From the IMG/VR virus record IMGVR_UViG_3300031132_000335: 20,000 bases of DNA; one strand, given 5' to 3'. The notes under the pieces were generated by a model. That model made no database searches. It was given only the letters and a program-made list of their open reading frames with translations, and was not told the origin of the DNA. Below are positions 2,731 to 10,954 of this stretch, in pieces. The translations under genes and the position numbers were made by a program. Source of the stretch: an uncultured virus (IMG/VR IMGVR_UViG_3300031132_000335). Taxonomy: Duplodnaviria; Heunggongvirae; Uroviricota; Caudoviricetes. Numbering within the stretch: the first letter of the stretch is position 1; every line of letters starts with the position of its first letter.

Positions 2731-3723
2731 ATGACCAACATGCACATTGCACTCCGCGGCCCACGTAAAGATGAGTGGGTATCTTGTGACGCAAAGAAGC
2801 GTTGCCGAAACAGCCGGCTACATGTTACTCCTGAACAACTCCACGCTATTCAAGCATGGAAAGGCAGCAACACAGCAATCACTGAAAGCGATGTTCTCCA
2901 TTACACGAAAGAACTCAACTCTGGCGACCCTATTACCTTGATCGAAGCTGGACGAGCTCATCAGGAACGTGAGCGCCGGTTGCAGGAAATCCAGAAGCAG
3001 TTCCTCCCAGTTCAAAAAGTTCGTGAGAGTACCGCCCGTCAAGTTACAGCGGAGCAAGCTTCTGCTTGGGTGAACTCGCTCACTGAGGAGGAGAAGGAGG
3101 CTCTGACGGATTTCAGCCGGTGGGACTCAAACGAGACGAACCTCTACTTCTACAAAGACGATTTCCGTGAAGCGTTCGACAGTTATAACCTGCTTGCATA
3201 CCCCGGTGCATACACCTCAAAGTCTGAACCGGAGCAAATGAAGTTGATGAGAGCGTACCGTCAAAAACTTCTAGACCGTGTAGCTCATATGGATGCAGCT
3301 CTAGGTAAAGAGACCCCATTCTCCGATGGTGTCCTGTTGTACCGAGGAGATGATGTCCCGTACACAGAAAATGAGAGTAAAGACATGCTGGAAGTCATTC
3401 GTGCAGCGTATCCGATTGGTTCCACCTACTCCCGTAGTTCATTCATGTCCACTTCATCCAATCCAGTAGTTGCTGGAGAGTTCGCTCGGTCGTTTGTGTT
3501 TGAGATTCTCACTGACCGAGGCGGACCTATCCAGGATTTAGCTCATGTGCAACGAGAAGAGGAAGTCATCCTCCCTCGTAATGAAGAGTACGAAGTTGTA
3601 GCTGTGCACCCAAACGTAAAGTACCGCGACACTCAGTACAATTGGCGTGTGGAGACGATGGTGGAAAAAGACATCAAAGAGTACACAGTCGTGCAGTTGG
3701 TGTCCAAGCGACTCCTGCCTTGA
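2731..3723 (+). CDS. ADP-ribosyltransferase, R-S-E clade (VIP2/C2/Alt-like), with an N-terminal Cys/His module
   Basis: Motifs LLYRG, FMSTSSNP and REEEVILPRN (ExE), preceded by the typical 'LTEEEKEAL..F....S..TN.Y' helix. N-terminus H...G....W..C.A...C....H. Confidence 0.85.
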   Translation: MTNMHIALRGPRKDEWVSCDAKKRCRNSRLHVTPEQLHAIQAWKGSNTAITESDVLHYTKELNSGDPITLIEAGRAHQERERRLQEIQKQFLPVQKVRESTARQVTAEQASAWVNSLTEEEKEALTDFSRWDSNETNLYFYKDDFREAFDSYNLLAYPGAYTSKSEPEQMKLMRAYRQKLLDRVAHMDAALGKETPFSDGVLLYRGDDVPYTENESKDMLEVIRAAYPIGSTYSRSSFMSTSSNPVVAGEFARSFVFEILTDRGGPIQDLAHVQREEEVILPRNEEYEVVAVHPNVKYRDTQYNWRVETMVEKDIKEYTVVQLVSKRLLP

Positions 3724-4050: not shown

Positions 4051-4254
4051 ATGGTTATCGTCTACATCATTCTAGCGCTTTCCGTTCCTGCCATCGCTTA
4101 TTACGTCCACTTGGCTTCTATTGCAGCTTCTGAGAGCAAAGTGAAGGTTGCTGAATTGCAGACTCAGGCAGCTCGGGAGCAGGCAGCTGCTGACCTGGCG
4201 CGAGCAGAGGCTGATAAAATGAAGGTGGAAGAGATGCGCTTGCAGCGTCTCTGA
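4051..4254 (+). CDS. Small single-pass membrane protein with coiled-coil tail
   Basis: GAGGAG RBS; hydrophobic N-terminus, Ala/Glu/Lys-rich tail. Confidence 0.75.
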   Translation: MVIVYIILALSVPAIAYYVHLASIAASESKVKVAELQTQAAREQAAADLARAEADKMKVEEMRLQRL

Positions 4255-4268
4255 GATGAAGAGCGTAG

Positions 4269-4308
4269 GGCAGGTAAACTTTTGAACATGAAAGTTTGCC
4301 TGCCTTTT
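4269..4308 (+). terminator. Intrinsic terminator insulating cassette 1
   Basis: GGCAGGTAAACTTT / AAAGTTTGCCTGCC stem (one G-U) followed by TTTT. Confidence 0.75.
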
Positions 4309-4317
4309 CATTTGAGC

Positions 4318-4326
4318 TGATATACT
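4318..4326 (+). promoter_or_regulatory. Extended -10 promoter of cassette 1
   Basis: TGaTATACT, 6 nt before the conserved TGGC start of the leader; identical spacing in all three cassettes. Confidence 0.7.
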
Positions 4327-4332
4327 TTGTAA

Positions 4333-4470
4333 TGGCGGGTCAACATTCGCCTGTCTTAGATGCTGCTTCTCCTACGCAGGAATCGCATCGCTAAGAGCAA
4401 GGTCTTCCACTCAGATCGTGTTGATAAGTTCAACCTTCATGACAGAGTACACATGGTTGGGCGTAGGGCA
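4333..4470 (+). ncRNA. Candidate structured leader RNA, copy 1 (double pseudoknot)
   Basis: Shares blocks GTCTT-AGATGC, CTCCTACGC, AGAGCAAGGTC, AGATCGTGT, GTTCAAC, CATGA and GCGTAGG with copies 2 and 3. TCAACAT (4340-4346) pairs GTGTTGA (4418-4424); CCTACGC (4371-4377) pairs GCGTAGG (4461-4467). Confidence 0.75.
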
Positions 4471-4487
4471 ATCATGGCAGGAAAATC

Positions 4488-6557
4488 ATGACGAAAAATA
4501 CGAACAAGAAAAAGCGTGTCCGCAAGCAGATGGAACGCTCACAGACGAATTACCTTTCAGCAGCTCGGGTCTTACAGCAGAAAAGCCCTACGAAGCGGGT
4601 TCCCACTCCTTGGAGTCTCCTCAACAAGAGTCTACTTGGTGGTGGGCTAACAGTTGGTGTGCATGCTATCTCTATGCCAGAGGAACTGCATGGGAAGATG
4701 ACCCGTGAAGCTTTTGACCAAAGAGCAATAAATGTACTTTTCTTGGAAACGGGCTACGAATACCGGGACAAGGAAAGCTATCAGAACTTTACAGGGTCTT
4801 CACGCTATGTGCAGGCTCTCAAAGATAACCCTTCTGGTAAAGCCAAAAACATCACTACGCATTACGGCTTTGAGACAATTGATATTCCTCTGGATGAATG
4901 GAGCAAGAACATAGAGGCCGAACTTGTGAACATGGCTCCTCGTCTGCTCGTCATTAGCAGCCGAAGCTATGAAGGCATTAACCAGGACCATGGAGCTGTC
5001 ACCCAAGTTTACATTGAGCAGTTGAAGCGTATCTCTCACCGATTTCAAATTCCAGTTGTCGTTGTCTACGGCACTAATGCTGAAAAATATACGGTGGAAG
5101 ATATCTCTCAGGAATCACTAAATTCTTCTATCATCGGTATTCCTGATGAGAATGAGACGCAAGTTGTCGCAGCGTTTGAAGTCGTCTCGAATAACGAACC
5201 AGTAGTTGCTACCCCTTGGGATAGTTTGAATACACTATTGAAAGGCGGTTATCGCGCTGGGTTCCATACCTTGACTTTGACAGAAGAGCAGCGACTCGGA
5301 GCCGTACGGGCACTTCAAGACAACAAAGAAGTTCGCGTTCTACTTGTCTCAGACTGGAAAGACAACCAGTATTTATCCATGTCCCTGGCAACCAGAGGAG
5401 AACAAGAGCAGCTGTGGATTCATAAGCCCCAAAACCACAAGTACCCTGTACTAGACGAGTGGGTTGACAACCTTGTTGCTGACTTCAAAGTCTATGAACC
5501 AGACATACTGGTTGTGGACATGTTCAAAAACCTGTACGAACATTATGGGCGCAGCAACGGCACAATGATACAGGCGTACGCGGACAAGCTTGATTACATT
5601 GCAAAAAAGTTCAGTCTTCCTATCGTTGCCCTAAGAGTTGATGAATCTGAGCACCTCCATACTGACACTATAAGGTACCGCAGACTCACCTCAGCTGTAA
5701 CCGCTGAGGTTGACGAAGTGGACTCATCGCGTCTTTCAGAGTTTAGGTTTGATGTTCCCCGTCAACAGGACGCTTCCTCCCGAGTGACTTTGCCTTGGGA
5801 AAGCGTCAACCAGTTGTATCAAAAAGACGGAACAGCTGGGCTACAGCCTGGCTTGCATATTTGGGCCAGCTCTTACCACTTCAACCTCGAGGATATCGCG
5901 GCTATTGCAGCGTACGATGGGAATCAAGGTAGTCTCATGTTCACAGCACTGGGAGAATTCAACAACAAGACCTACAAAAACGAAATCTTCATGAAACGCG
6001 ACATTCCAGTTTTTCAGCTTGAAGACCATACCATTCGGGGAGCGTATAATCCTACTTTATTGCAACATCTTGACAAAGAGCAGCTTTTAGGATTTATCAG
6101 CAAAGAAAAGACACGAAAGTATCCAACGCAGTTATTAGTACTGAACCAAAGTCTGACTAACACTCCTGTCGCTGAAATTATTGAAAAAGGGGAGAATTTG
6201 GATATTGCATGGTCTGACGATAGCAAAGCTGGACGAGAAGCTACTCGGGTAGCCCGCAGAGTTTGGACGGAAGACTTATTCCATCAACTTCACAAGCTTG
6301 CGGTTGAACAGTCGTTCCCTATCCTTCTCCTTGAAGAAATTGCGGGAGTAGGTGAGACCTCCGTAGAATCAATCGTGGATGAGTCACTCGCAGCACTCCA
6401 GAAGCAGTTACACATTACAGATAGTGCGTTGGAGCAGGTGGCAACCTTTACCTATGTGTCCCCTCATAATACTCCTGACAAAGCTATTCGTTTCACTCAG
6501 GCCACTGGGAAGCAAGCAGGCGAGTCAGCTCTTGTTCCTTGGAACGAACTCTATTAG
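4488..6557 (+). CDS. Basic N-terminal peptide plus three tandem degenerate DnaB/RecA-like ATPase-fold domains (no Walker A)
   Basis: Three domain starts (TPWSLLNKSLLGGGLTVGVH, TPWDSLNTLLKGGYRAGFH, LPWESVNQLY..GLQPGLH) and three 'L..I/L....xP(V/I)hhh' motifs (LKRISHRFQIPVVVV, LDYIAKKFSLPIVAL, LHKLAVEQSFPILLL). No GKS/T. Confidence 0.75.
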   Translation: MTKNTNKKKRVRKQMERSQTNYLSAARVLQQKSPTKRVPTPWSLLNKSLLGGGLTVGVHAISMPEELHGKMTREAFDQRAINVLFLETGYEYRDKESYQNFTGSSRYVQALKDNPSGKAKNITTHYGFETIDIPLDEWSKNIEAELVNMAPRLLVISSRSYEGINQDHGAVTQVYIEQLKRISHRFQIPVVVVYGTNAEKYTVEDISQESLNSSIIGIPDENETQVVAAFEVVSNNEPVVATPWDSLNTLLKGGYRAGFHTLTLTEEQRLGAVRALQDNKEVRVLLVSDWKDNQYLSMSLATRGEQEQLWIHKPQNHKYPVLDEWVDNLVADFKVYEPDILVVDMFKNLYEHYGRSNGTMIQAYADKLDYIAKKFSLPIVALRVDESEHLHTDTIRYRRLTSAVTAEVDEVDSSRLSEFRFDVPRQQDASSRVTLPWESVNQLYQKDGTAGLQPGLHIWASSYHFNLEDIAAIAAYDGNQGSLMFTALGEFNNKTYKNEIFMKRDIPVFQLEDHTIRGAYNPTLLQHLDKEQLLGFISKEKTRKYPTQLLVLNQSLTNTPVAEIIEKGENLDIAWSDDSKAGREATRVARRVWTEDLFHQLHKLAVEQSFPILLLEEIAGVGETSVESIVDESLAALQKQLHITDSALEQVATFTYVSPHNTPDKAIRFTQATGKQAGESALVPWNELY

Positions 6558-6579
6558 TAGCAGATGTCGGTAAAGGACG

Positions 6580-6614
6580 GGGAGTTCCAGAGCGGTTAGC
6601 TGGAACTCCCTTTT
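6580..6614 (+). terminator. Intrinsic terminator between cassettes 1 and 2
   Basis: GGGAGTTCCAG / CTGGAACTCCC 11-bp stem followed by TTTT. Confidence 0.8.
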
Positions 6615-6635
6615 ATGCGTTCAAAATCAATAGTC

Positions 6636-6644
6636 TGCTATCCT
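6636..6644 (+). promoter_or_regulatory. Extended -10 promoter of cassette 2
   Basis: TGcTATCCT, 6 nt before TGGC (6651). Confidence 0.65.
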
Positions 6645-6650
6645 GTTTTC

Positions 6651-6777
6651 TGGCAGCCAACACCTGCCCGTCTTAGATGCACTCCTCCTACGCAGGGAGC
6701 ATTGGTTAGAGCAAGGTCCCGTATAGATCGTGTTGGTTGTTCAACTTCCATGACCTATGACAGTTGAGCGTAGGTCA
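6651..6777 (+). ncRNA. Candidate structured leader RNA, copy 2 (double pseudoknot)
   Basis: GGCAG/CTGCC hairpin with loop CCAACAC (6657-6663) pairing GTGTTGG (6730-6736); loop CCTACGC (6687-6693) pairing GCGTAGG (6768-6774); TCAACT/AGTTGA stem. Confidence 0.8.
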
Positions 6778-6796
6778 ATTGTCGTTTGGATGAATC

Positions 6797-7672
6797 ATGA
6801 CGAAGAACACCCGCACCAAAGAAACCGTCCGCGCCCGTATGGCTATCACTGGGGAGAACTACCTCACTGCCTATCGCGCTCTGTTTGAGACAAATCATTA
6901 CCTTACTCCGTGGGATGACATCAACCAATTCCTTGATGGTGGGTTGCGACCTGGGCTGCATGTAGTCGCATCTGCTAGTCTGGAACCAGCAGCAGGAGCG
7001 ATCATGGGCTTAGTGACTCAGAACCACTGGAAAACATTCATGCATAGTGCAGCTTCTGTATGGGGAGAGCTGGGTCCTCGCTGGGAGGGAATGGCTCAAG
7101 TCTATGGCGGAGAAAATCGCTTAGATGACATCCGCAATGAAACAGGGAGTACCTCAACGCGACCAAAATACCTCACATTCAGAGGAATTGGTGGAAGACA
7201 CAAAGGCAGTAGCAGTAATTACTTTGATTGGCAGAACTCTATTCAGGACTTCCTCATTGGTATGCGTGAAAACTGTCTCGAGTTTCAATCAGAAGTTTTA
7301 GTGCTAGACTATTACCAAATCCTTACCAAAGGTCATACAAAAGACGATTACCAAGAACTTGCTGAGGGATTACAAAAACTTTCCCGTGAACTCAATATTC
7401 CTGTCATCCTGCAAACCCAATTGAGCACAAACGCCAATAGTCAGCCTTCTGATTGGTCTTCCTTGCGCGGTGATTATGGGATGCTCAATGAATATGCAGA
7501 CACCATCATGACATTCGCATCCTTCTACACCCAAGCATACAATAGCCGTGGACCAAAAGACGGAGTATTTGGCGAAGAAGACCTTGTGCGATGGGTAAAA
7601 ATTAGCGTCGACAAAACCGCCCATGGAATGACTGGGGAGACACTCCTACAAAAAGAGAAATTCCTCGCGTAA
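6797..7672 (+). CDS. Basic N-terminal peptide plus DnaB C-terminal-like domain, probably catalytically inactive
   Basis: TPWDDINQFLDGGLRPGLHVV, LVLDYYQIL, LQKLSRELNIPVILQTQLS, ADTIM. Walker A position reads ASASLEPAAGA and the KNRxG arginine finger reads KTAHG. Confidence 0.8.
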   Translation: MTKNTRTKETVRARMAITGENYLTAYRALFETNHYLTPWDDINQFLDGGLRPGLHVVASASLEPAAGAIMGLVTQNHWKTFMHSAASVWGELGPRWEGMAQVYGGENRLDDIRNETGSTSTRPKYLTFRGIGGRHKGSSSNYFDWQNSIQDFLIGMRENCLEFQSEVLVLDYYQILTKGHTKDDYQELAEGLQKLSRELNIPVILQTQLSTNANSQPSDWSSLRGDYGMLNEYADTIMTFASFYTQAYNSRGPKDGVFGEEDLVRWVKISVDKTAHGMTGETLLQKEKFLA

Positions 7673-7702
7673 CAGCATTTTCTGCGCCGTTTAGGAGGAC
7701 CG

Positions 7703-7711
7703 TGCTATCAT
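7703..7711 (+). promoter_or_regulatory. Extended -10 promoter of cassette 3
   Basis: TGcTATCAT, 6 nt before TGGC (7718). Confidence 0.7.
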
Positions 7712-7717
7712 AAAGGC

Positions 7718-7849
7718 TGGCAGCAGACATCTGCCCGTCTTTAGATGCAGGTCCTCCTACGCGGGAAGCATTGACAAGAGCAAGGTCTCAAATAGATCGT
7801 GTCAGTTGTTCAACTCACCATGAAACCCATGACGGTTGAGCGTAGGTCA
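7718..7849 (+). ncRNA. Candidate structured leader RNA, copy 3 (double pseudoknot)
   Basis: GGCAG/CTGCC hairpin with loop CAGACAT (7724-7730) pairing GTGTCAG (7799-7805, one A-A mismatch); loop CCTACGC (7756-7762) pairing GCGTAGG (7840-7846). Confidence 0.8.
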
Positions 7850-7868
7850 ATTGTCGTTTGGATGAATC

Positions 7869-8696
7869 ATGACGAAGAATACTCACACAAAAATCGCAGT
7901 CCGCGCCCGTATGGCTGTTACTGGCGAGAATTATCTCACCGCCTACCGCGCTCTGTTTGAGCAGACGCTATACACGTCTCCTTGGCCTGAGATGAACCGA
8001 ATCCTTGGCGGCGGCTATCGTACTGGGCTGCATGTTATTGGTGCGCCAAAAAAGACAGGGAAGAGTCTCATCATCCGAGCTTTGGCTGCAAATTCTACAA
8101 AACCTGTATTGGTTGCTGGAACAGAGGTTTCAGAGAAAGAGTTCTGGGACACTACTGCTATTGACCTTTACCGATTTGGTGGAGAAGACCTCATGAAAGC
8201 CTCAGGCGGCCAGTATGTTGACGAGCTGAGAAAGAAGATTTCCTTTCGTAGCGGTTTCGTCCACCATGTGATAGGGAAAAATATATTTGGCCTTCTTGAC
8301 GAAATTGAAAACCAGTATGAAGTCACGCCTTTCGGTGCTGTATTCTTTGATTCTCTTCAAGCGGTGACTGGCAGTAGGGATGAACTTACCCAATTCACAC
8401 GGGCGCTCAAACTGTTTGCAAATAAATATGACATCCCTGTTTTTCTCACCTCGGAAATGCTAACCTCACAGGTAAATGGCATGATGAAAGTTTCCGGCCT
8501 TGCATCTAGTGGGACTGTTGAGCAAGATGCTGACACTATCACGCTTCTCTCCCGACAGTACACCTTGAAGAGCGAACATACAGAACCAACCTTCACGCAA
8601 GCTGACATGGTTGAGTGGCTGCGAATGGATGTTGTGAAGAACCGCTACGGGCAGACTGACTCTATCCAGGTGAAGAAGACTGAGATTTTCTCCTGA
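7869..8696 (+). CDS. Basic N-terminal peptide plus DnaB-like (SF4) helicase C-terminal ATPase domain with intact motifs
   Basis: Walker A APKKTGKS, catalytic Glu region GTEVS, Walker B VFFDSLQ, IPVFLTSEM, SSGTVEQDADTITLL, arginine finger VVKNRYG. No DnaB N-terminal or primase domain. Confidence 0.85.
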   Translation: MTKNTHTKIAVRARMAVTGENYLTAYRALFEQTLYTSPWPEMNRILGGGYRTGLHVIGAPKKTGKSLIIRALAANSTKPVLVAGTEVSEKEFWDTTAIDLYRFGGEDLMKASGGQYVDELRKKISFRSGFVHHVIGKNIFGLLDEIENQYEVTPFGAVFFDSLQAVTGSRDELTQFTRALKLFANKYDIPVFLTSEMLTSQVNGMMKVSGLASSGTVEQDADTITLLSRQYTLKSEHTEPTFTQADMVEWLRMDVVKNRYGQTDSIQVKKTEIFS

Positions 8697-8774
8697 ACCT
8701 GCTTGCGAAGCTGGTGAGGATGGTGTACGTTCACTGTTGTACCCGTAAAAACTCAGTGAAAGGTCTGACCACTC

Positions 8775-10301
8775 ATGGTCATCTTCTACATCATCCTCAC
8801 CGTTGTCGTCGCTGCTGCCGCAGTGGCACTGGTGAAGGTGTTCAACGCCATGCACATCACGGCATTCGCAGCTACTGCGCTGGTTGCCATGCTGCTGCCG
8901 CTTCCGACGTATGCCATCACCACGGCTGTCGCTCGTGAGGACCAGCAGACCTACCACGAGTACTGGAATGGGTTTGAGTCCAGTGCGGACCAGTCAGTCA
9001 TCAACTGCACCCGTGATGGTTCCTGCCAGCACACGTTCTCGTGCGACCCGTACCAGGTGACGGAAATGGAGACGTACACTGTGTACGAGACCCAGACCTA
9101 CACTGACAGTGAAGGTCACATGAAGACGCGCAGCGTGCCGAAGCAGAAGCAGCGTCCTGTCACGAAGACGAAGTACCACTCCTGCCCGTACTCCAAGCAG
9201 GAAACCACCTACACTGTCAACACGACTCTCGGCGGATACACGGTTGAGTCGCACCTCATGACGGGAGAGCCGTGGCGTTGGGGCCACAGCATTCCTGGTG
9301 GTCAGGTCACAAAGGCTCCTGCTGTGTGGACCGCTGTGCAAAAGCGCATCGCTGACGGTAACCCTGGCGGTGTCACGAAGGTCAGCAACTACAAGAACTA
9401 CATCCTTGCTTCCGACAACCTCTTCAAGCGTTACAGCGACAAGGTTGACCAGTTGCAGAAGAAGGGCCTGCTGCCTGCGCCGACTGTTGGCGTGTCGGGT
9501 ATGTACGATGCGCAGAAGGTCTCGTTCCTCGGAAACATGCACGGCGCTCCCGTGAAGGCTCTGGCAAAGGACATGCCTCGCCTGAACGGGGCAGTTGGTA
9601 CTCAGCTTCGCGGCGATGTTCGTGTGGTGTTCGTTGATGCGGAGAAGATGACGGACAACCCTGAGGACTACGCGAACGCTGTCATGGCGTACTGGCAGTC
9701 CAAGCAGCTTGGTCGGGATGCTCTTGCGAAGAACACGGTGGCGGTCCTGGTCGGAGTGAAGGGGTACGAGAAGCCTGCTCAGTCAGAGGTCTCCCCGACT
9801 TCGGTTTCCACTCCGACTACCACTGCCACCGCTGCTGCAACTCCTGCTGAGGTTGCACCTGTCATCAAGCCTGGAACTCCTGTGGTAGCATGGGCGAAGG
9901 CGTTCACGGGGATGCCTGTCGGGAATGAAGCCCTGTTGCAGCAGTTCAACTCGGAGCTTCCTGGTACGGTCATTGACAAGAACTTCCTTGGCTCCCCGAA
10001 GTTCAACCCGTCCAACAGCACCATCACGCACACGAACGGTGTGATTGAAGGTATGCTGTACGGTGAGAACAAGTTCCAGCGGGTCAGTATGACCGCAAAG
10101 GACGCAGGTGACGTAGGTTCTGGATTCGCATACCTTGGCCAGAACTGGCAGCCTGACACTGGAACGCTTGTCACGTTCTACATCATCGCAAGCATCCTCT
10201 TTACAGGAGCGCTTATCGGTGGTAGTGTCCTGACTATGAACCTCGCTGCCTCCCGCAGCATTGACCCCATCAAGATGTTCCTCGGAAAGGGAAAGAATTG
10301 A
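8775..10301 (+). CDS. Membrane protein with a large extracytoplasmic domain (two N-terminal TM, one C-terminal TM)
   Basis: GAAAGG RBS; Cys-containing segment C.RDGSC.H...CDPY...YHSCPY; Thr/Ala/Pro linker; strongly C/G-ending codons. Confidence 0.85.
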   Translation: MVIFYIILTVVVAAAAVALVKVFNAMHITAFAATALVAMLLPLPTYAITTAVAREDQQTYHEYWNGFESSADQSVINCTRDGSCQHTFSCDPYQVTEMETYTVYETQTYTDSEGHMKTRSVPKQKQRPVTKTKYHSCPYSKQETTYTVNTTLGGYTVESHLMTGEPWRWGHSIPGGQVTKAPAVWTAVQKRIADGNPGGVTKVSNYKNYILASDNLFKRYSDKVDQLQKKGLLPAPTVGVSGMYDAQKVSFLGNMHGAPVKALAKDMPRLNGAVGTQLRGDVRVVFVDAEKMTDNPEDYANAVMAYWQSKQLGRDALAKNTVAVLVGVKGYEKPAQSEVSPTSVSTPTTTATAAATPAEVAPVIKPGTPVVAWAKAFTGMPVGNEALLQQFNSELPGTVIDKNFLGSPKFNPSNSTITHTNGVIEGMLYGENKFQRVSMTAKDAGDVGSGFAYLGQNWQPDTGTLVTFYIIASILFTGALIGGSVLTMNLAASRSIDPIKMFLGKGKN

Positions 10302-10954
10302 ACTTCATCACCAGCATGTCCAAGCGGACGAAGACCATCGTCATCGTCGCTGTCCTCCTGATTGCGGCTCTCATCGTGGGCCTGTCGTTTTACGGCAAGT
10401 ACAACTCTCTGAACACTGAGGGTGTCCGTCAGGAGCAGGCGCTGAACGCGCAGTACCTGGATAACAAGAACGAGCTGTCCGCATACACGAACACGGTCCT
10501 GGAATCCCTCGGGGTTGCGGACCGTCAGAGTGACAAGGTGAAGGAAATTCTTACTGAGGCTGTCCAGGGTCGCTATGGGAAGAGCCTGGGTGAGGGTAGC
10601 CAGCTCTTCACTGTCATCAGCGAGGCTTACCCTGACCTGACCGCGACTTCCCAGTCCTACGCGAAGGTGCAGGATGCGGTTGCTTCGGGCCGTGCTGCGT
10701 TCAAGAACAAGCAGACTGTTCTCCTGAGCAAGGTGGAAGAGTACAACAAGTGGCGTAAGACTGGCCTGGTCCAGCGGAACATGATTTCCTCTCTCGGGTT
10801 CCCCTCCGATGACCTTGTGGTCAAGCAGGACGGTCGCACCTTCCGCGGTGAGGATGCCCTGGACAAGATGAGTGACATCATTACTTCGTCTCAGGCTGAG
10901 CAGTCTTATGACACGGGAACCAGTGACCCGCTCATCGGCGGAAGCGGTAAGTAA
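10298..10954 (+). CDS. N-terminally anchored helical protein, LemA-like family seen in large phages
   Basis: Overlaps the upstream stop; one TM followed by 'EQALNAQY..N...LS.Y...AV.GRY...EAYP...Y.KVQ.A...GR..F...Q' (recognition from memory). Confidence 0.7.
   Translation: MNFITSMSKRTKTIVIVAVLLIAALIVGLSFYGKYNSLNTEGVRQEQALNAQYLDNKNELSAYTNTVLESLGVADRQSDKVKEILTEAVQGRYGKSLGEGSQLFTVISEAYPDLTATSQSYAKVQDAVASGRAAFKNKQTVLLSKVEEYNKWRKTGLVQRNMISSLGFPSDDLVVKQDGRTFRGEDALDKMSDIITSSQAEQSYDTGTSDPLIGGSGK

Follow-up and report, generated by a model that had tools for sequence, protein, structure and literature searches.

Does a leader sequence that occurs three times in a viral genome fragment fold into a functional RNA, and if so, what does it do for the genes behind it? 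The fragment, called the window below, is the whole 20,000-nucleotide (nt) stretch of DNA from an uncultured virus of the Caudoviricetes (IMG/VR record IMGVR_UViG_3300031132_000335), and each leader lies directly 5' of one of three paralogous genes. A preliminary description, made from the letters alone, had drawn the copy at 6651-6777 as a compact structure with two pseudoknots. Homology, covariation and coupling to a common N-terminal protein segment of ~30 residues (the tag) demonstrate that the leader is a conserved tertiary-folded RNA, and the window carries an AT-richer variant of a family found in actinobacteria. The leader is probably a translation-control element of its own mRNA with a two-domain, switchable fold, for which the tag is our favoured trigger.

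The three elements are the following; the scores are those of R3, a covariance model built from 10 actinobacterial leaders only.

4333-4495, + strand: leader copy 1, whole element (25.5 bits, E value 2e-5)
6651-6805, + strand: leader copy 2, whole element (43.5 bits, E value 9e-10)
7718-7877, + strand: leader copy 3, whole element (46.2 bits, E value 2e-10)

Their aligned parts (4333-4472, 6651-6779 and 7718-7851, + strand) have 82-83% column identity. The copy 2 element does not stop at 6777 but takes in at least the start codon (6797) and ~2-3 codons more. All helices that the preliminary description listed can be drawn in the three copies where it placed them. The parts used below are given here, all on the + strand.

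6652-6656 GGCAG / 6664-6668 CTGCC: copy 2 helix P1, read from the sequence
6657-6663 CCAACAC / 6730-6736 GTGTTGG: copy 2 pseudoknot PK1, read from the sequence
6672-6674 CUU / 6709-6711 GAG: copy 2 P2a, register by homology
6676-6680 GATGC / 6699-6703 GCATT: copy 2 P2b
6683-6686 TCCT / 6694-6697 AGGG: copy 2 P2c
6687-6693 CCTACGC: copy 2 loop L2, the 5' strand of PK2
6712-6714 CAA: copy 2 linker
6715-6718 GGTC / 6726-6729 GATC: copy 2 P3
6741-6746 TCAACT / 6762-6767 AGTTGA: copy 2 P4 hairpin, formable in all copies, excludes P5
6745-6753: copy 2 anti-start segment
6759-6767 / 6775-6783: copy 2 P5
6768-6774 GCGTAGG: copy 2 loop L5, the 3' strand of PK2
6788-6790 GGA: copy 2 Shine-Dalgarno (SD) sequence
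6795-6805: copy 2 3' strand of P6, with the start codon at 6797
4334-4338 / 4347-4351: copy 1 P1
4340-4346 / 4418-4424: copy 1 PK1
4371-4377: copy 1 L2; start codon at 4488
4452-4459 / 4469-4476: copy 1 P5, with GCGTAGG (4461-4467) in its loop
7719-7723 / 7731-7735: copy 3 P1
7724-7730 / 7799-7805: copy 3 PK1, with one A.A mismatch
7756-7762: copy 3 L2; start codon at 7869
7831-7839 / 7847-7855: copy 3 P5, with loop GCGTAGG (7840-7846)

When the window copies are aligned with near-identical metagenome copies (9 distinct rows), standard pairs fill 98.7% of the 297 cells of 40 pairs, compared with only 35-42% when the partners are slid by 1-3 columns. Two-sided changes occur at three pairs, one in P1 and two in PK1, so the compensatory changes claimed earlier are real. 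PK1 itself is present in all three copies, but it is not perfect throughout, since the A.A mismatch of copy 3 had gone unmentioned. Close relatives come from only a few metagenome contigs: L142 (99%) and L144 (78%, gene 3), both on contigs of ~0.88 Mb, and the fragments L143 and L145. Among their changes, a U replaces the C that begins L2, opposite a G, and keeps the pairing, as does TCAACT to TCAATC in P4 of copy 3 in L142 and L144. A sequencing run shows a related strain in which G4418A replaces a U.G of copy 1 PK1 by U-A, and G6736A costs only the outermost PK1 pair. Taken alone, the three copies are thin evidence and suggest the structure only, because they are also the source from which it was drawn and do not vary in PK2.

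Such similarity might also be a remnant of gene duplication or of gene conversion at the 5' ends, with no RNA function at all. The three genes are paralogous, and genes 2 and 3 share 27 of their first 32 residues but are only 30% identical overall; conservation is thus much higher in the leader and the first ~30 codons than in the remainder of the gene. We regard this explanation as practically excluded: the variants of the window lineage keep the pairing (the L2 change opposite G, and G4418A), and homologs of ~70% guanine-plus-cytosine (GC) content in many actinobacterial families preserve every helix by compensatory changes.

These distant homologs give the decisive support for the structure. 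A covariance model made from the window leaders (R1) matched a locus of Streptosporangiaceae bacterium NEAU-GS5 (L105) with 25.9 bits; the loose pattern CCTACGC..GCAAGG..GCGTAGG returned at least 120 genome loci and 18 viral loci, dominated by chance, and L105 was the sole real match among them. The open reading frame (ORF) directly behind this match opens with MVKDSARKNAIRERMAQTGKSYADAAREL, the N-terminal motif of the window genes, and a mixed-model search of the NEAU-GS5 family gave further matches with the same downstream motif. Run on both strands of the 20 kb with filters off, R3 matched exactly the three window leaders, the next best candidate having E > 2; as R3 was built without window input, the window leaders belong to the actinobacterial family. 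All three give an R3 match, form P1, PK1, P2, P3 and a kiss between L2 and L5, and are followed by an ORF with the tag, the features by which we define the new family. In samples of increasing breadth, R3 found the leader in 32 of 101 genomes of the NEAU-GS5 family (43 hits, up to 3 per genome, E <= 1e-3), in 9 of 121 genomes of its order (E <= 1e-5) and, in an even sample of the phylum, in 1 of 151, the query genome only (E <= 1e-5). Note that these large searches used stricter filters and group samples, and show presence, not absence.

A consensus DNA pattern, applied to one genome per species, gave at least 120 loci, and R3 confirmed 75 of the 80 that were tested with their flanks (E <= 1e-4). 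The confirmed loci include Streptosporangiaceae, Trebonia (among them T. kvetii), Actinocrinis, Catellatospora, Dactylosporangium, Streptomyces (also on the plasmid NZ_CP108117.1), Embleya hyalina (5' part only), Amycolatopsis roodepoortensis, Pseudonocardia humida, Pseudofrankia and Actinoallomurus oryzae, as well as metagenome-assembled genomes (MAGs) of Kribbellaceae, of Acidimicrobiales and, in large number, of Actinomycetes. The five loci that R3 did not confirm are from two Actinomadura, Spirillospora, Saccharothrix and a Novosphingobium. Of five named genomes searched in full with R3, Streptomyces klenkii alone gave a match, a partial one, and none was found in Actinomadura syzygii, a Pseudarthrobacter, Mycobacterium mantenii or Nocardia abscessus. 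In three loci, one of them on plasmid unnamed2 of Streptomyces sp. NBC_00212 (NZ_CP108117.1: 32570-33415; L271, with L248 and L251), the R3 match covers model positions 2-140 only, and a regular expression matched no tag ORF downstream; the Streptomyces members may form a sub-type that differs in its 3' domain or in its gene.

Other searches returned little. The region 4200-9000 had no blastn match among phages and plasmids, tighter patterns of the window type gave 0 viral loci and 4 genome loci, none of them matched by R1, and a protein-based locus search found nothing in viral contigs and, in genomes, weak relatives plus L141. An R1 match in a Candidatus Saccharibacteria MAG (L015) was rejected, as it lies within an apparent 23S rRNA gene (2380-2700), an inserted segment of which bears CCTACGC...GCGTAGG. 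The R2 matches L158-L160, L169-L175 and L178 have no tag downstream and were treated as noise. Rfam 15 gave 0 matches at the gathering score on the window and 10 actinobacterial loci; at a permissive E value only chance-level hits away from the window leaders appeared, and 8 further loci gave none at E up to 1. A full-text literature search found nothing on the motif or on words of the tag peptide, with subscription journals and supplements outside its scope. The leader thus appears to represent an undescribed class of structured translational-control leader in Actinomycetota, of which an earlier description may exist outside the literature covered.

The covariation in a deeper alignment that the preliminary description had named as the check is clearly positive in both alignments that we made. 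In the first (A8, 43 distinct sequences), 89.8% of the cells are paired, compared with 74.3% after shuffling (0/500), two-sided changes occur in 23 of 32 pairs, and the covariation score is 0.460, compared with 0.183 for shuffled and 0.02-0.08 for slid controls. The second (A9, 95 distinct sequences) gives 88.7% versus 78.1% shuffled, again 23 of 32 pairs, and a score of 0.319 versus 0.131 shuffled and 0.02-0.04 slid. PK1 and PK2 are the cleanest test because they lie outside the model structure. All five core pairs of PK1 change on both sides in fixed columns of A8 and A9. Since the model misregisters some 3' strands, we also compared the longest helix that each strand forms with its own partner and with the partners of other sequences. 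For PK1, cognate partners give 4.89 base pairs (bp) and non-cognate ones 3.96 (p=3e-13), with 48 duplex types and at least 5 bp in 65 of 95 sequences. For PK2, the values are 6.54 and 5.25 bp (p=3e-15), with 12 duplex types and at least 6 bp in 92 of 95. The PK2 duplexes include CCUACGC/GCGUAGG, CCCACGC/GCGUGGG, CCCGCG/CGCGGG, CCCGGCGC/GCGCCGGG, CCCAUGC/GCAUGGG and CCCACGU/ACGUGGG, that is, U-A to C-G, A-U to G-C, C-G to U-A at two more positions, and the insertion of one pair. In addition, a G.U pair in P3 is kept in 86 of 95 sequences (A9), which fits an RNA of the sense strand and not a DNA element. The homologs therefore bear out a functional RNA with conserved stems, variable loops and two long-range pairings.

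They also change several details of the anatomy. The P2 arm stands, but its lower register is, by homology, more likely CUU/GAG with a linker CAA(G) than the TCT/AGA pairing with a GCAA linker drawn earlier. CAAG is present in 95 of 95 sequences, where the search pattern partly set it, and in all but one partial hit among the A8 rows inspected. In actinobacterial P2, a 5'-GA-3' faces a 5'-NNNGA-3' between P2a (UCC/GGA) and P2b, so that a 3-nt bulge and tandem G.A/A.G pairs can be drawn and a canonical kink-turn (k-turn) is predicted. The GA is present in 87 of 95 sequences, at positions partly set by the search pattern (the same feature occurs in the unbiased rows), and the 3' side reads GACGA, GGTGA, AACGA, GAAGA and similar. 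The pair next to the k-turn covaries (A-U, G-C and G.U, A9 columns 36/91).

The preliminary description took PK2 for a pairing between a loop and a single strand. The long-range pairing holds, but in 38 of 39 sequences its 3' strand sits inside the loop of a hairpin, P5, so that PK2 is a kissing interaction between L2 and L5. At least 5 pairs enclose this loop in 92 of 94 sequences, and the P5 flanks, of which there are 61 distinct 5' versions, form 6.70 bp with cognate and 5.58 bp with non-cognate partners (p=7e-9). In the window, the P5 stems (GACAGUUGA/UCAAUUGUC in copy 2, GACGGUUGA/UCAAUUGUC in copy 3 and CAUGGUUG/CAAUCAUG in copy 1) differ by compensatory changes. The hairpin P4, which had been described as part of the fold, can be formed in all three copies, but it uses the same GUUGA strand as P5 and the two are mutually exclusive. 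The predicted energies are -10.1, -9.3 and -7.0 kcal/mol for P5 and -5.7, -6.4 and -4.7 kcal/mol for P4 (copies 2, 3 and 1). A P4-like alternative is only marginal in the actinobacterial homologs (5.77 bp cognate versus 5.42 non-cognate, p=0.03), so P4 is not clearly conserved there and may be an alternative conformer in the window lineage.

The placement for translation control that had been read from a spacing of ~20 nt between PK2 and the start codon holds, and the link proves to be closer than that. P5 ends at the SD purines, its base often taking the first Gs of GGGAAG or GGAGG. A further helix, P6, joins the start codon and one or more of the codons after it to a stretch that lies between PK1 and P5 and is GGUCAUG-like (in the window, CAUGA). 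This helix is in the minimum-energy fold of most members. Its duplex energy is -12.7 kcal/mol for cognate, -9.1 for shuffled and -10.2 for non-cognate strands (Wilcoxon p=2.3e-6), and 11 of 36 sequences individually stand at <=5 of 200 shuffles. Members with two in-frame starts (ATGATCATGAC) have a correspondingly doubled upstream segment (GGTCAGGTCAT). The upstream segment also follows the start codon in type: AUG starts go with ..CAU in 29 cases versus 4, and GUG starts with ..CAC in 13 versus 2 (Fisher p=1e-6). Two further candidates were rejected. An upstream ORF or leader peptide is not supported, because the ATG ORFs of the P4 region vary in length and frame: that of copy 2 has 5 codons, and those of the other two copies are not in frame with the gene. 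A pairing of the 3' strand of P1 and J1-2 (CUGCCCGCU) with GGCGGGCAG, seen by eye in some actinobacteria, does not track the P5 variants GGCGAG and GGCGAU.

Each copy appears to start its own transcript. The signals found around the leaders, all on the + strand, are the following.

4267-4306: terminator-like hairpin and T run, called by a scan, just upstream of the copy 1 promoter
4318-4326: copy 1 extended -10-like site, TGATATACT
6580-6614: terminator-like hairpin GGGAGTTCCAG/CTGGAACTCCC and TTTT, between gene 1 and the copy 2 promoter
6636-6644: copy 2 extended -10-like site, TGnTATCCT; predicted start at ~6651-6652
7703-7711: copy 3 extended -10-like site, TGCTATCAT

In each window copy, TGnTAnnnT ends 7 nt before the first G of P1, with the A, T and T of the -10 hexamer invariant in the three-copy alignment; the actinobacterial homologs have TANNNT 6-8 nt before P1. 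A consensus promoter scan that needs a -35 hexamer did not call the three sites, and the terminator scan missed the hairpin at 6580-6614 because its 9-nt loop exceeds the limit of 8. Leader 1 and the start of gene 1 are covered by contigs that begin at 4350 and 4339 and come from a metatranscriptome and two presumed RNA runs, whereas a DNA-like contig runs on upstream of those ends. These ends are a weak hint of a transcript that starts at P1; the sequencing runs share few words only (0.05-0.11), and stretches without contig cover are uninformative.

A helix at the very 5' end might serve only to guard the mRNA from 5'-end-dependent decay, or the fold might set a low, constant level of translation. 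In its favour, the transcript is predicted to open with P1, almost every member has the closed fold as its predicted ground state, and no conserved alternative structure was found in actinobacteria. We consider such a constitutive element quite improbable. Protection would ask for no more than a simple 5' hairpin, whereas the leader keeps, across orders, a k-turn, an invariant junction and two long-range pairings that covary; the strict coupling to the tag would also go unexplained. The leader could also be a self-cleaving ribozyme that processes the transcripts, which we think very improbable. Ribozymes like that of hepatitis delta virus (HDV) form a nested double pseudoknot, and the leader seems to resemble them in the order of the long-range helix strands and the two intervening hairpins, PK1(5')-PK2(5')-P3-PK1(3')-hairpin-PK2(3'); moreover, three copies stand in tandem within 3.5 kb. 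However, both 5' strands of the leader lie in hairpin loops, there is no J4/2-like segment, and no conserved stretch joins the last hairpin to the PK2 3' strand, the place of the catalytic C in HDV-like ribozymes (the window has 0-1 nt there). No ribozyme family of Rfam 15 matches, and processing is not needed, given a promoter-like site for every copy and an upstream terminator for two.

On the protein side, the tag is the only constant. The window genes behind the leaders are as follows.

4488-6557, + strand: gene 1, 689 amino acids (aa); tag, then at least 2 degenerate PW..LN..LGGG.R.G.H repeats
6797-7672, + strand: gene 2, 291 aa; tag and a DnaB_C-like domain
7869-8696, + strand: gene 3, 275 aa; tag and a DnaB_C-like RecA-fold ATPase domain, Walker A GAPKKTGKS

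All three open with MTKNT..(V)R..M....NYL.A.R.L, and the consensus of the tag over the family is (M)T.[DN]KA.K.A.R.RMA.TGEPYSVA.R. The repeats of gene 1, which has no Pfam match, correspond to the segment that opens the DnaB_C-like domain of gene 3. Gene 2 has ASASLEPAAGA where gene 3 has its Walker A motif, and no GKS/T. Since gene 2 thus lacks Walker A and gene 1 has degenerate repeats only, two of the three paralogs may encode inactive ATPase-like subunits. In the wider family, a tag ORF starts within a few bases of the model end behind 37 of 43 distinct hits, and a regular expression finds one behind 83 of 95, ~5 of these being false positives in a wrong frame; overall, a tag gene follows ~80-85% of hits. 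Conversely, three loci fetched through the protein motif only (L141, L150 and L152) have an R3 match immediately upstream; L151, fetched through the protein N-terminus, has none at E up to 1e-3. The sequences behind the tag are unrelated to one another: Clp_N (3 cases), KH_2 (2), a leucine-rich repeat (LRR) domain (1), Ala/acid-rich coiled coils and, in the window, DnaB_C, with mostly no known domain. The members found are named 'hypothetical protein' at NCBI, so the leader also flags a new protein family. Crude ORF calls around 12 actinobacterial loci gave heterogeneous neighbourhoods with no common partner gene. The tag is basic, as read from the alignment, and is predicted to form a helix (2-18), a turn (TGE) and a second helix (22-33), with a mean predicted local distance difference test score of 79 from a 24-sequence alignment.

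On contig C30 of genome G077, near-identical leader-gene copies lie in inverted orientation ~12 kb apart (77808-77966, +, and 89706-89864, -; L177 and L168/L182); one tag has an in-frame stop (..RGR*AVTGEPY..) and the other diverges after residue 13. In L196, the leader at 1501-1659 is followed by VTDDSAFKKQVRARMAFPVKS.., a tag broken after RARMA, and this locus is probably a frameshifted or decaying member. A profile search of the PDB with the tag gave 5f9p_A as its best hit at E 0.75, which is not significant; residues 197-228 of this chain ('anthrone oxidase-like protein'), QDEARKAAVGRVRAVVAGEPYSNTY, resemble the tag and might be a structural lead. A protein atlas gave unnamed clusters at 0.75-0.83, leads only.

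The diversity of these genes bears on a third alternative, a riboswitch, in which the 5' domain would be an aptamer for a small molecule or an ion and the ligand would set the L2-L5 kiss and hence access to the start site. The architecture agrees with it, being typical of complex aptamers: a conserved, covarying, aptamer-like multi-helix junction with an invariant CAAG linker, a k-turn arm that brings a loop into long-range pairing, two tertiary pairings, and an expression-platform-like P5/P6 over the SD sequence and the start codon. In the window, the mutually exclusive P4 and P5 offer an alternative pairing as well, but in the actinobacterial members it is, as noted, not clearly conserved. 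The gene association argues against a classical metabolite riboswitch, because the downstream domains are unrelated, belong to no one pathway, have no metabolic or transport theme and share the N-terminal tag only. No riboswitch family of Rfam matches even at E up to 1. We therefore think a riboswitch unlikely.

Because nothing else on the protein side is constant, the tag is the most economical trigger, and we return to the translation-control leader as the reading that we prefer. Each copy would be the 5' untranslated leader of its own mRNA. Its 5' domain would begin with the first bases of the transcript; it comprises P1, whose loop pairs with the strand just 3' of P3 (PK1), and the long bent arm P2, with a canonical k-turn in actinobacteria, which presents the 7-nt loop L2. 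The 3' domain holds the translation start region, in which P5 ends at the SD purines and a GUCAU-like anti-start segment forms P6 over the start codon and the codon after it. The L2-L5 kiss ties the two domains together, and in the folded state the ribosome would be denied access to the start site. The 5' domain would sense a trigger that shifts the balance between closed and open states, possibly through the grip of L2 on L5; in the window, formation of P4 would break P5. With the ~30-residue basic helical tag as the putative trigger, tag-bearing proteins would limit their own and each other's synthesis, possibly in cis. The repression of translation, the existence of the switch and the identity of the trigger are what we infer from the anatomy and the gene association.

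A more specific version is tentative and, in our view, rather doubtful. The leader and the tag may form a portable RNA-peptide cassette, in which the tag, maybe while nascent, would bind the 5' domain of its own or a sister leader and lock the L2-L5 kiss. If so, any domain fused to the tag would come under a shared, dosage-sensing translational feedback with the start site closed. Shuffling would then have joined this modular unit to Clp_N, KH, LRR, coiled-coil and DnaB-like domains, and a plasmid as well as the ~0.88-Mb element that holds the window would have acquired it.

Several observations weigh against the preferred reading or soften its support. A 49-nt deletion in a metagenome variant of copy 1 (L145: 205-295) removes P2 entirely, together with the CAA linker and the 5' half of P3. 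Its ends fall in a direct repeat, GTCTT, and it reflects either natural loss of the sensor arm or faulty assembly; if natural, at least copy 1 can lose this arm. In the window, P2 has 1-2 nt (A or UA) opposite GCUAA, GGUUA or GACAA, which leaves no way to draw a tandem G.A. The P6 helix of the window copies measures just 5-6 bp and in no copy beats shuffled sequences (72, 83 and 35 of 200 equal it), and folding of the single sequences is no better than that of shuffles (z 0.23, -1.78 and 0.08 for the three copies). As to the alignments, A8 and A9 were fitted to the nested helices and their rows are mutually related, and A9 owes 75 of its 95 rows to a pattern search in which P2a, the k-turn GA, CAAGG and most of L2 were prescribed. 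The shuffled-flank control of P5 is weak, since GC-rich flanks pair easily: 84% of shuffles reach at least 5 bp, with a mean of 6.7 pairs versus 9.6. The match of AUG and GUG starts to their upstream segments may represent few independent events, because the GUG group is mostly one protein subfamily. Finally, the tag has no detectable relative in Pfam or NCBIfam and no significant PDB match.

The leader can be compared with several known systems. In the SAM-I (S-box) riboswitch, a k-turn arm bends a helix so that its terminal loop forms a long-range pseudoknot. The actinobacterial leaders likewise combine, as far as such a general comparison goes, a k-turn arm with long-range loop pairing in a multi-helix 5' untranslated fold that would control the downstream gene. 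Unlike SAM-I, the leader has no Rfam match and no sulfur metabolism genes, its loop kisses another hairpin loop, a second pseudoknot comes from the 5'-terminal hairpin, and the window copies have no canonical k-turn. The rpsO (S15) mRNA of E. coli has a pseudoknotted leader through which a ribosomal protein regulates its own synthesis; our leader is also pseudoknotted by the SD sequence and the start codon and, under the favoured reading, would be bound by its own product in a translational feedback. It differs in that the linked proteins are non-ribosomal and have only a 30-residue N-terminal hairpin in common, whose binding is putative, and in that it is larger (~150 nt, two long-range pairings) and matches no leader family of Rfam. 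In phage lambda, the arginine-rich N-terminal peptide of N binds the boxB hairpin in antitermination. The likeness is a short, basic, helical N-terminal segment encoded beside a structured RNA on the same transcript, whereas boxB is a small hairpin acting in antitermination, the leader is a large tertiary fold over a translation start, and the tag is fused to many domains; this comparison is one of description and claims no sequence similarity.

These results add a large and well-supported class of structured RNA to the Actinomycetota, a phylum rich in antibiotic producers, and the anatomy provides a model of translational control that can be tested immediately. The strict coupling of leader and tag across unrelated proteins is unusual, and suggests either a new RNA-binding peptide with its RNA switch or an orphan riboswitch with an odd regulon. 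Being compact, the cassette could become a regulatory part for Streptomyces engineering if its trigger is found.

As for its surroundings, the window has a GC content of 0.44-0.54 (~49%), no tRNA, and no relative in the phage, plasmid or species-genome collections searched. It consists mostly of ORFans, 18 of 22 further ORFs tested having no PHROG match, and its phage-like matches are a virion structural protein, phrog_2087, an ADP-ribosyltransferase-like ORF and a DnaB-like helicase. Three neighbouring ORFs were noted.

2731-3723, + strand: 330 aa, just upstream of the tag genes; ADP-ribosyltransferase exoenzyme domain PF03496 (E 6e-15)
8775-10301, + strand: 508 aa, directly after gene 3; phrog_2087, a family of unknown function
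10298-10954, + strand: 218 aa; 'virion structural protein' phrog_1383 (E 3e-31)

The first of these also matches two PHROG families weakly, an 'ADP-ribosyltransferase exoenzyme toxin' and a head-maturation protease, the latter in the C-terminal part of that family. Vi01-like and jumbo phages have proteins with 28-30% identity to the third.

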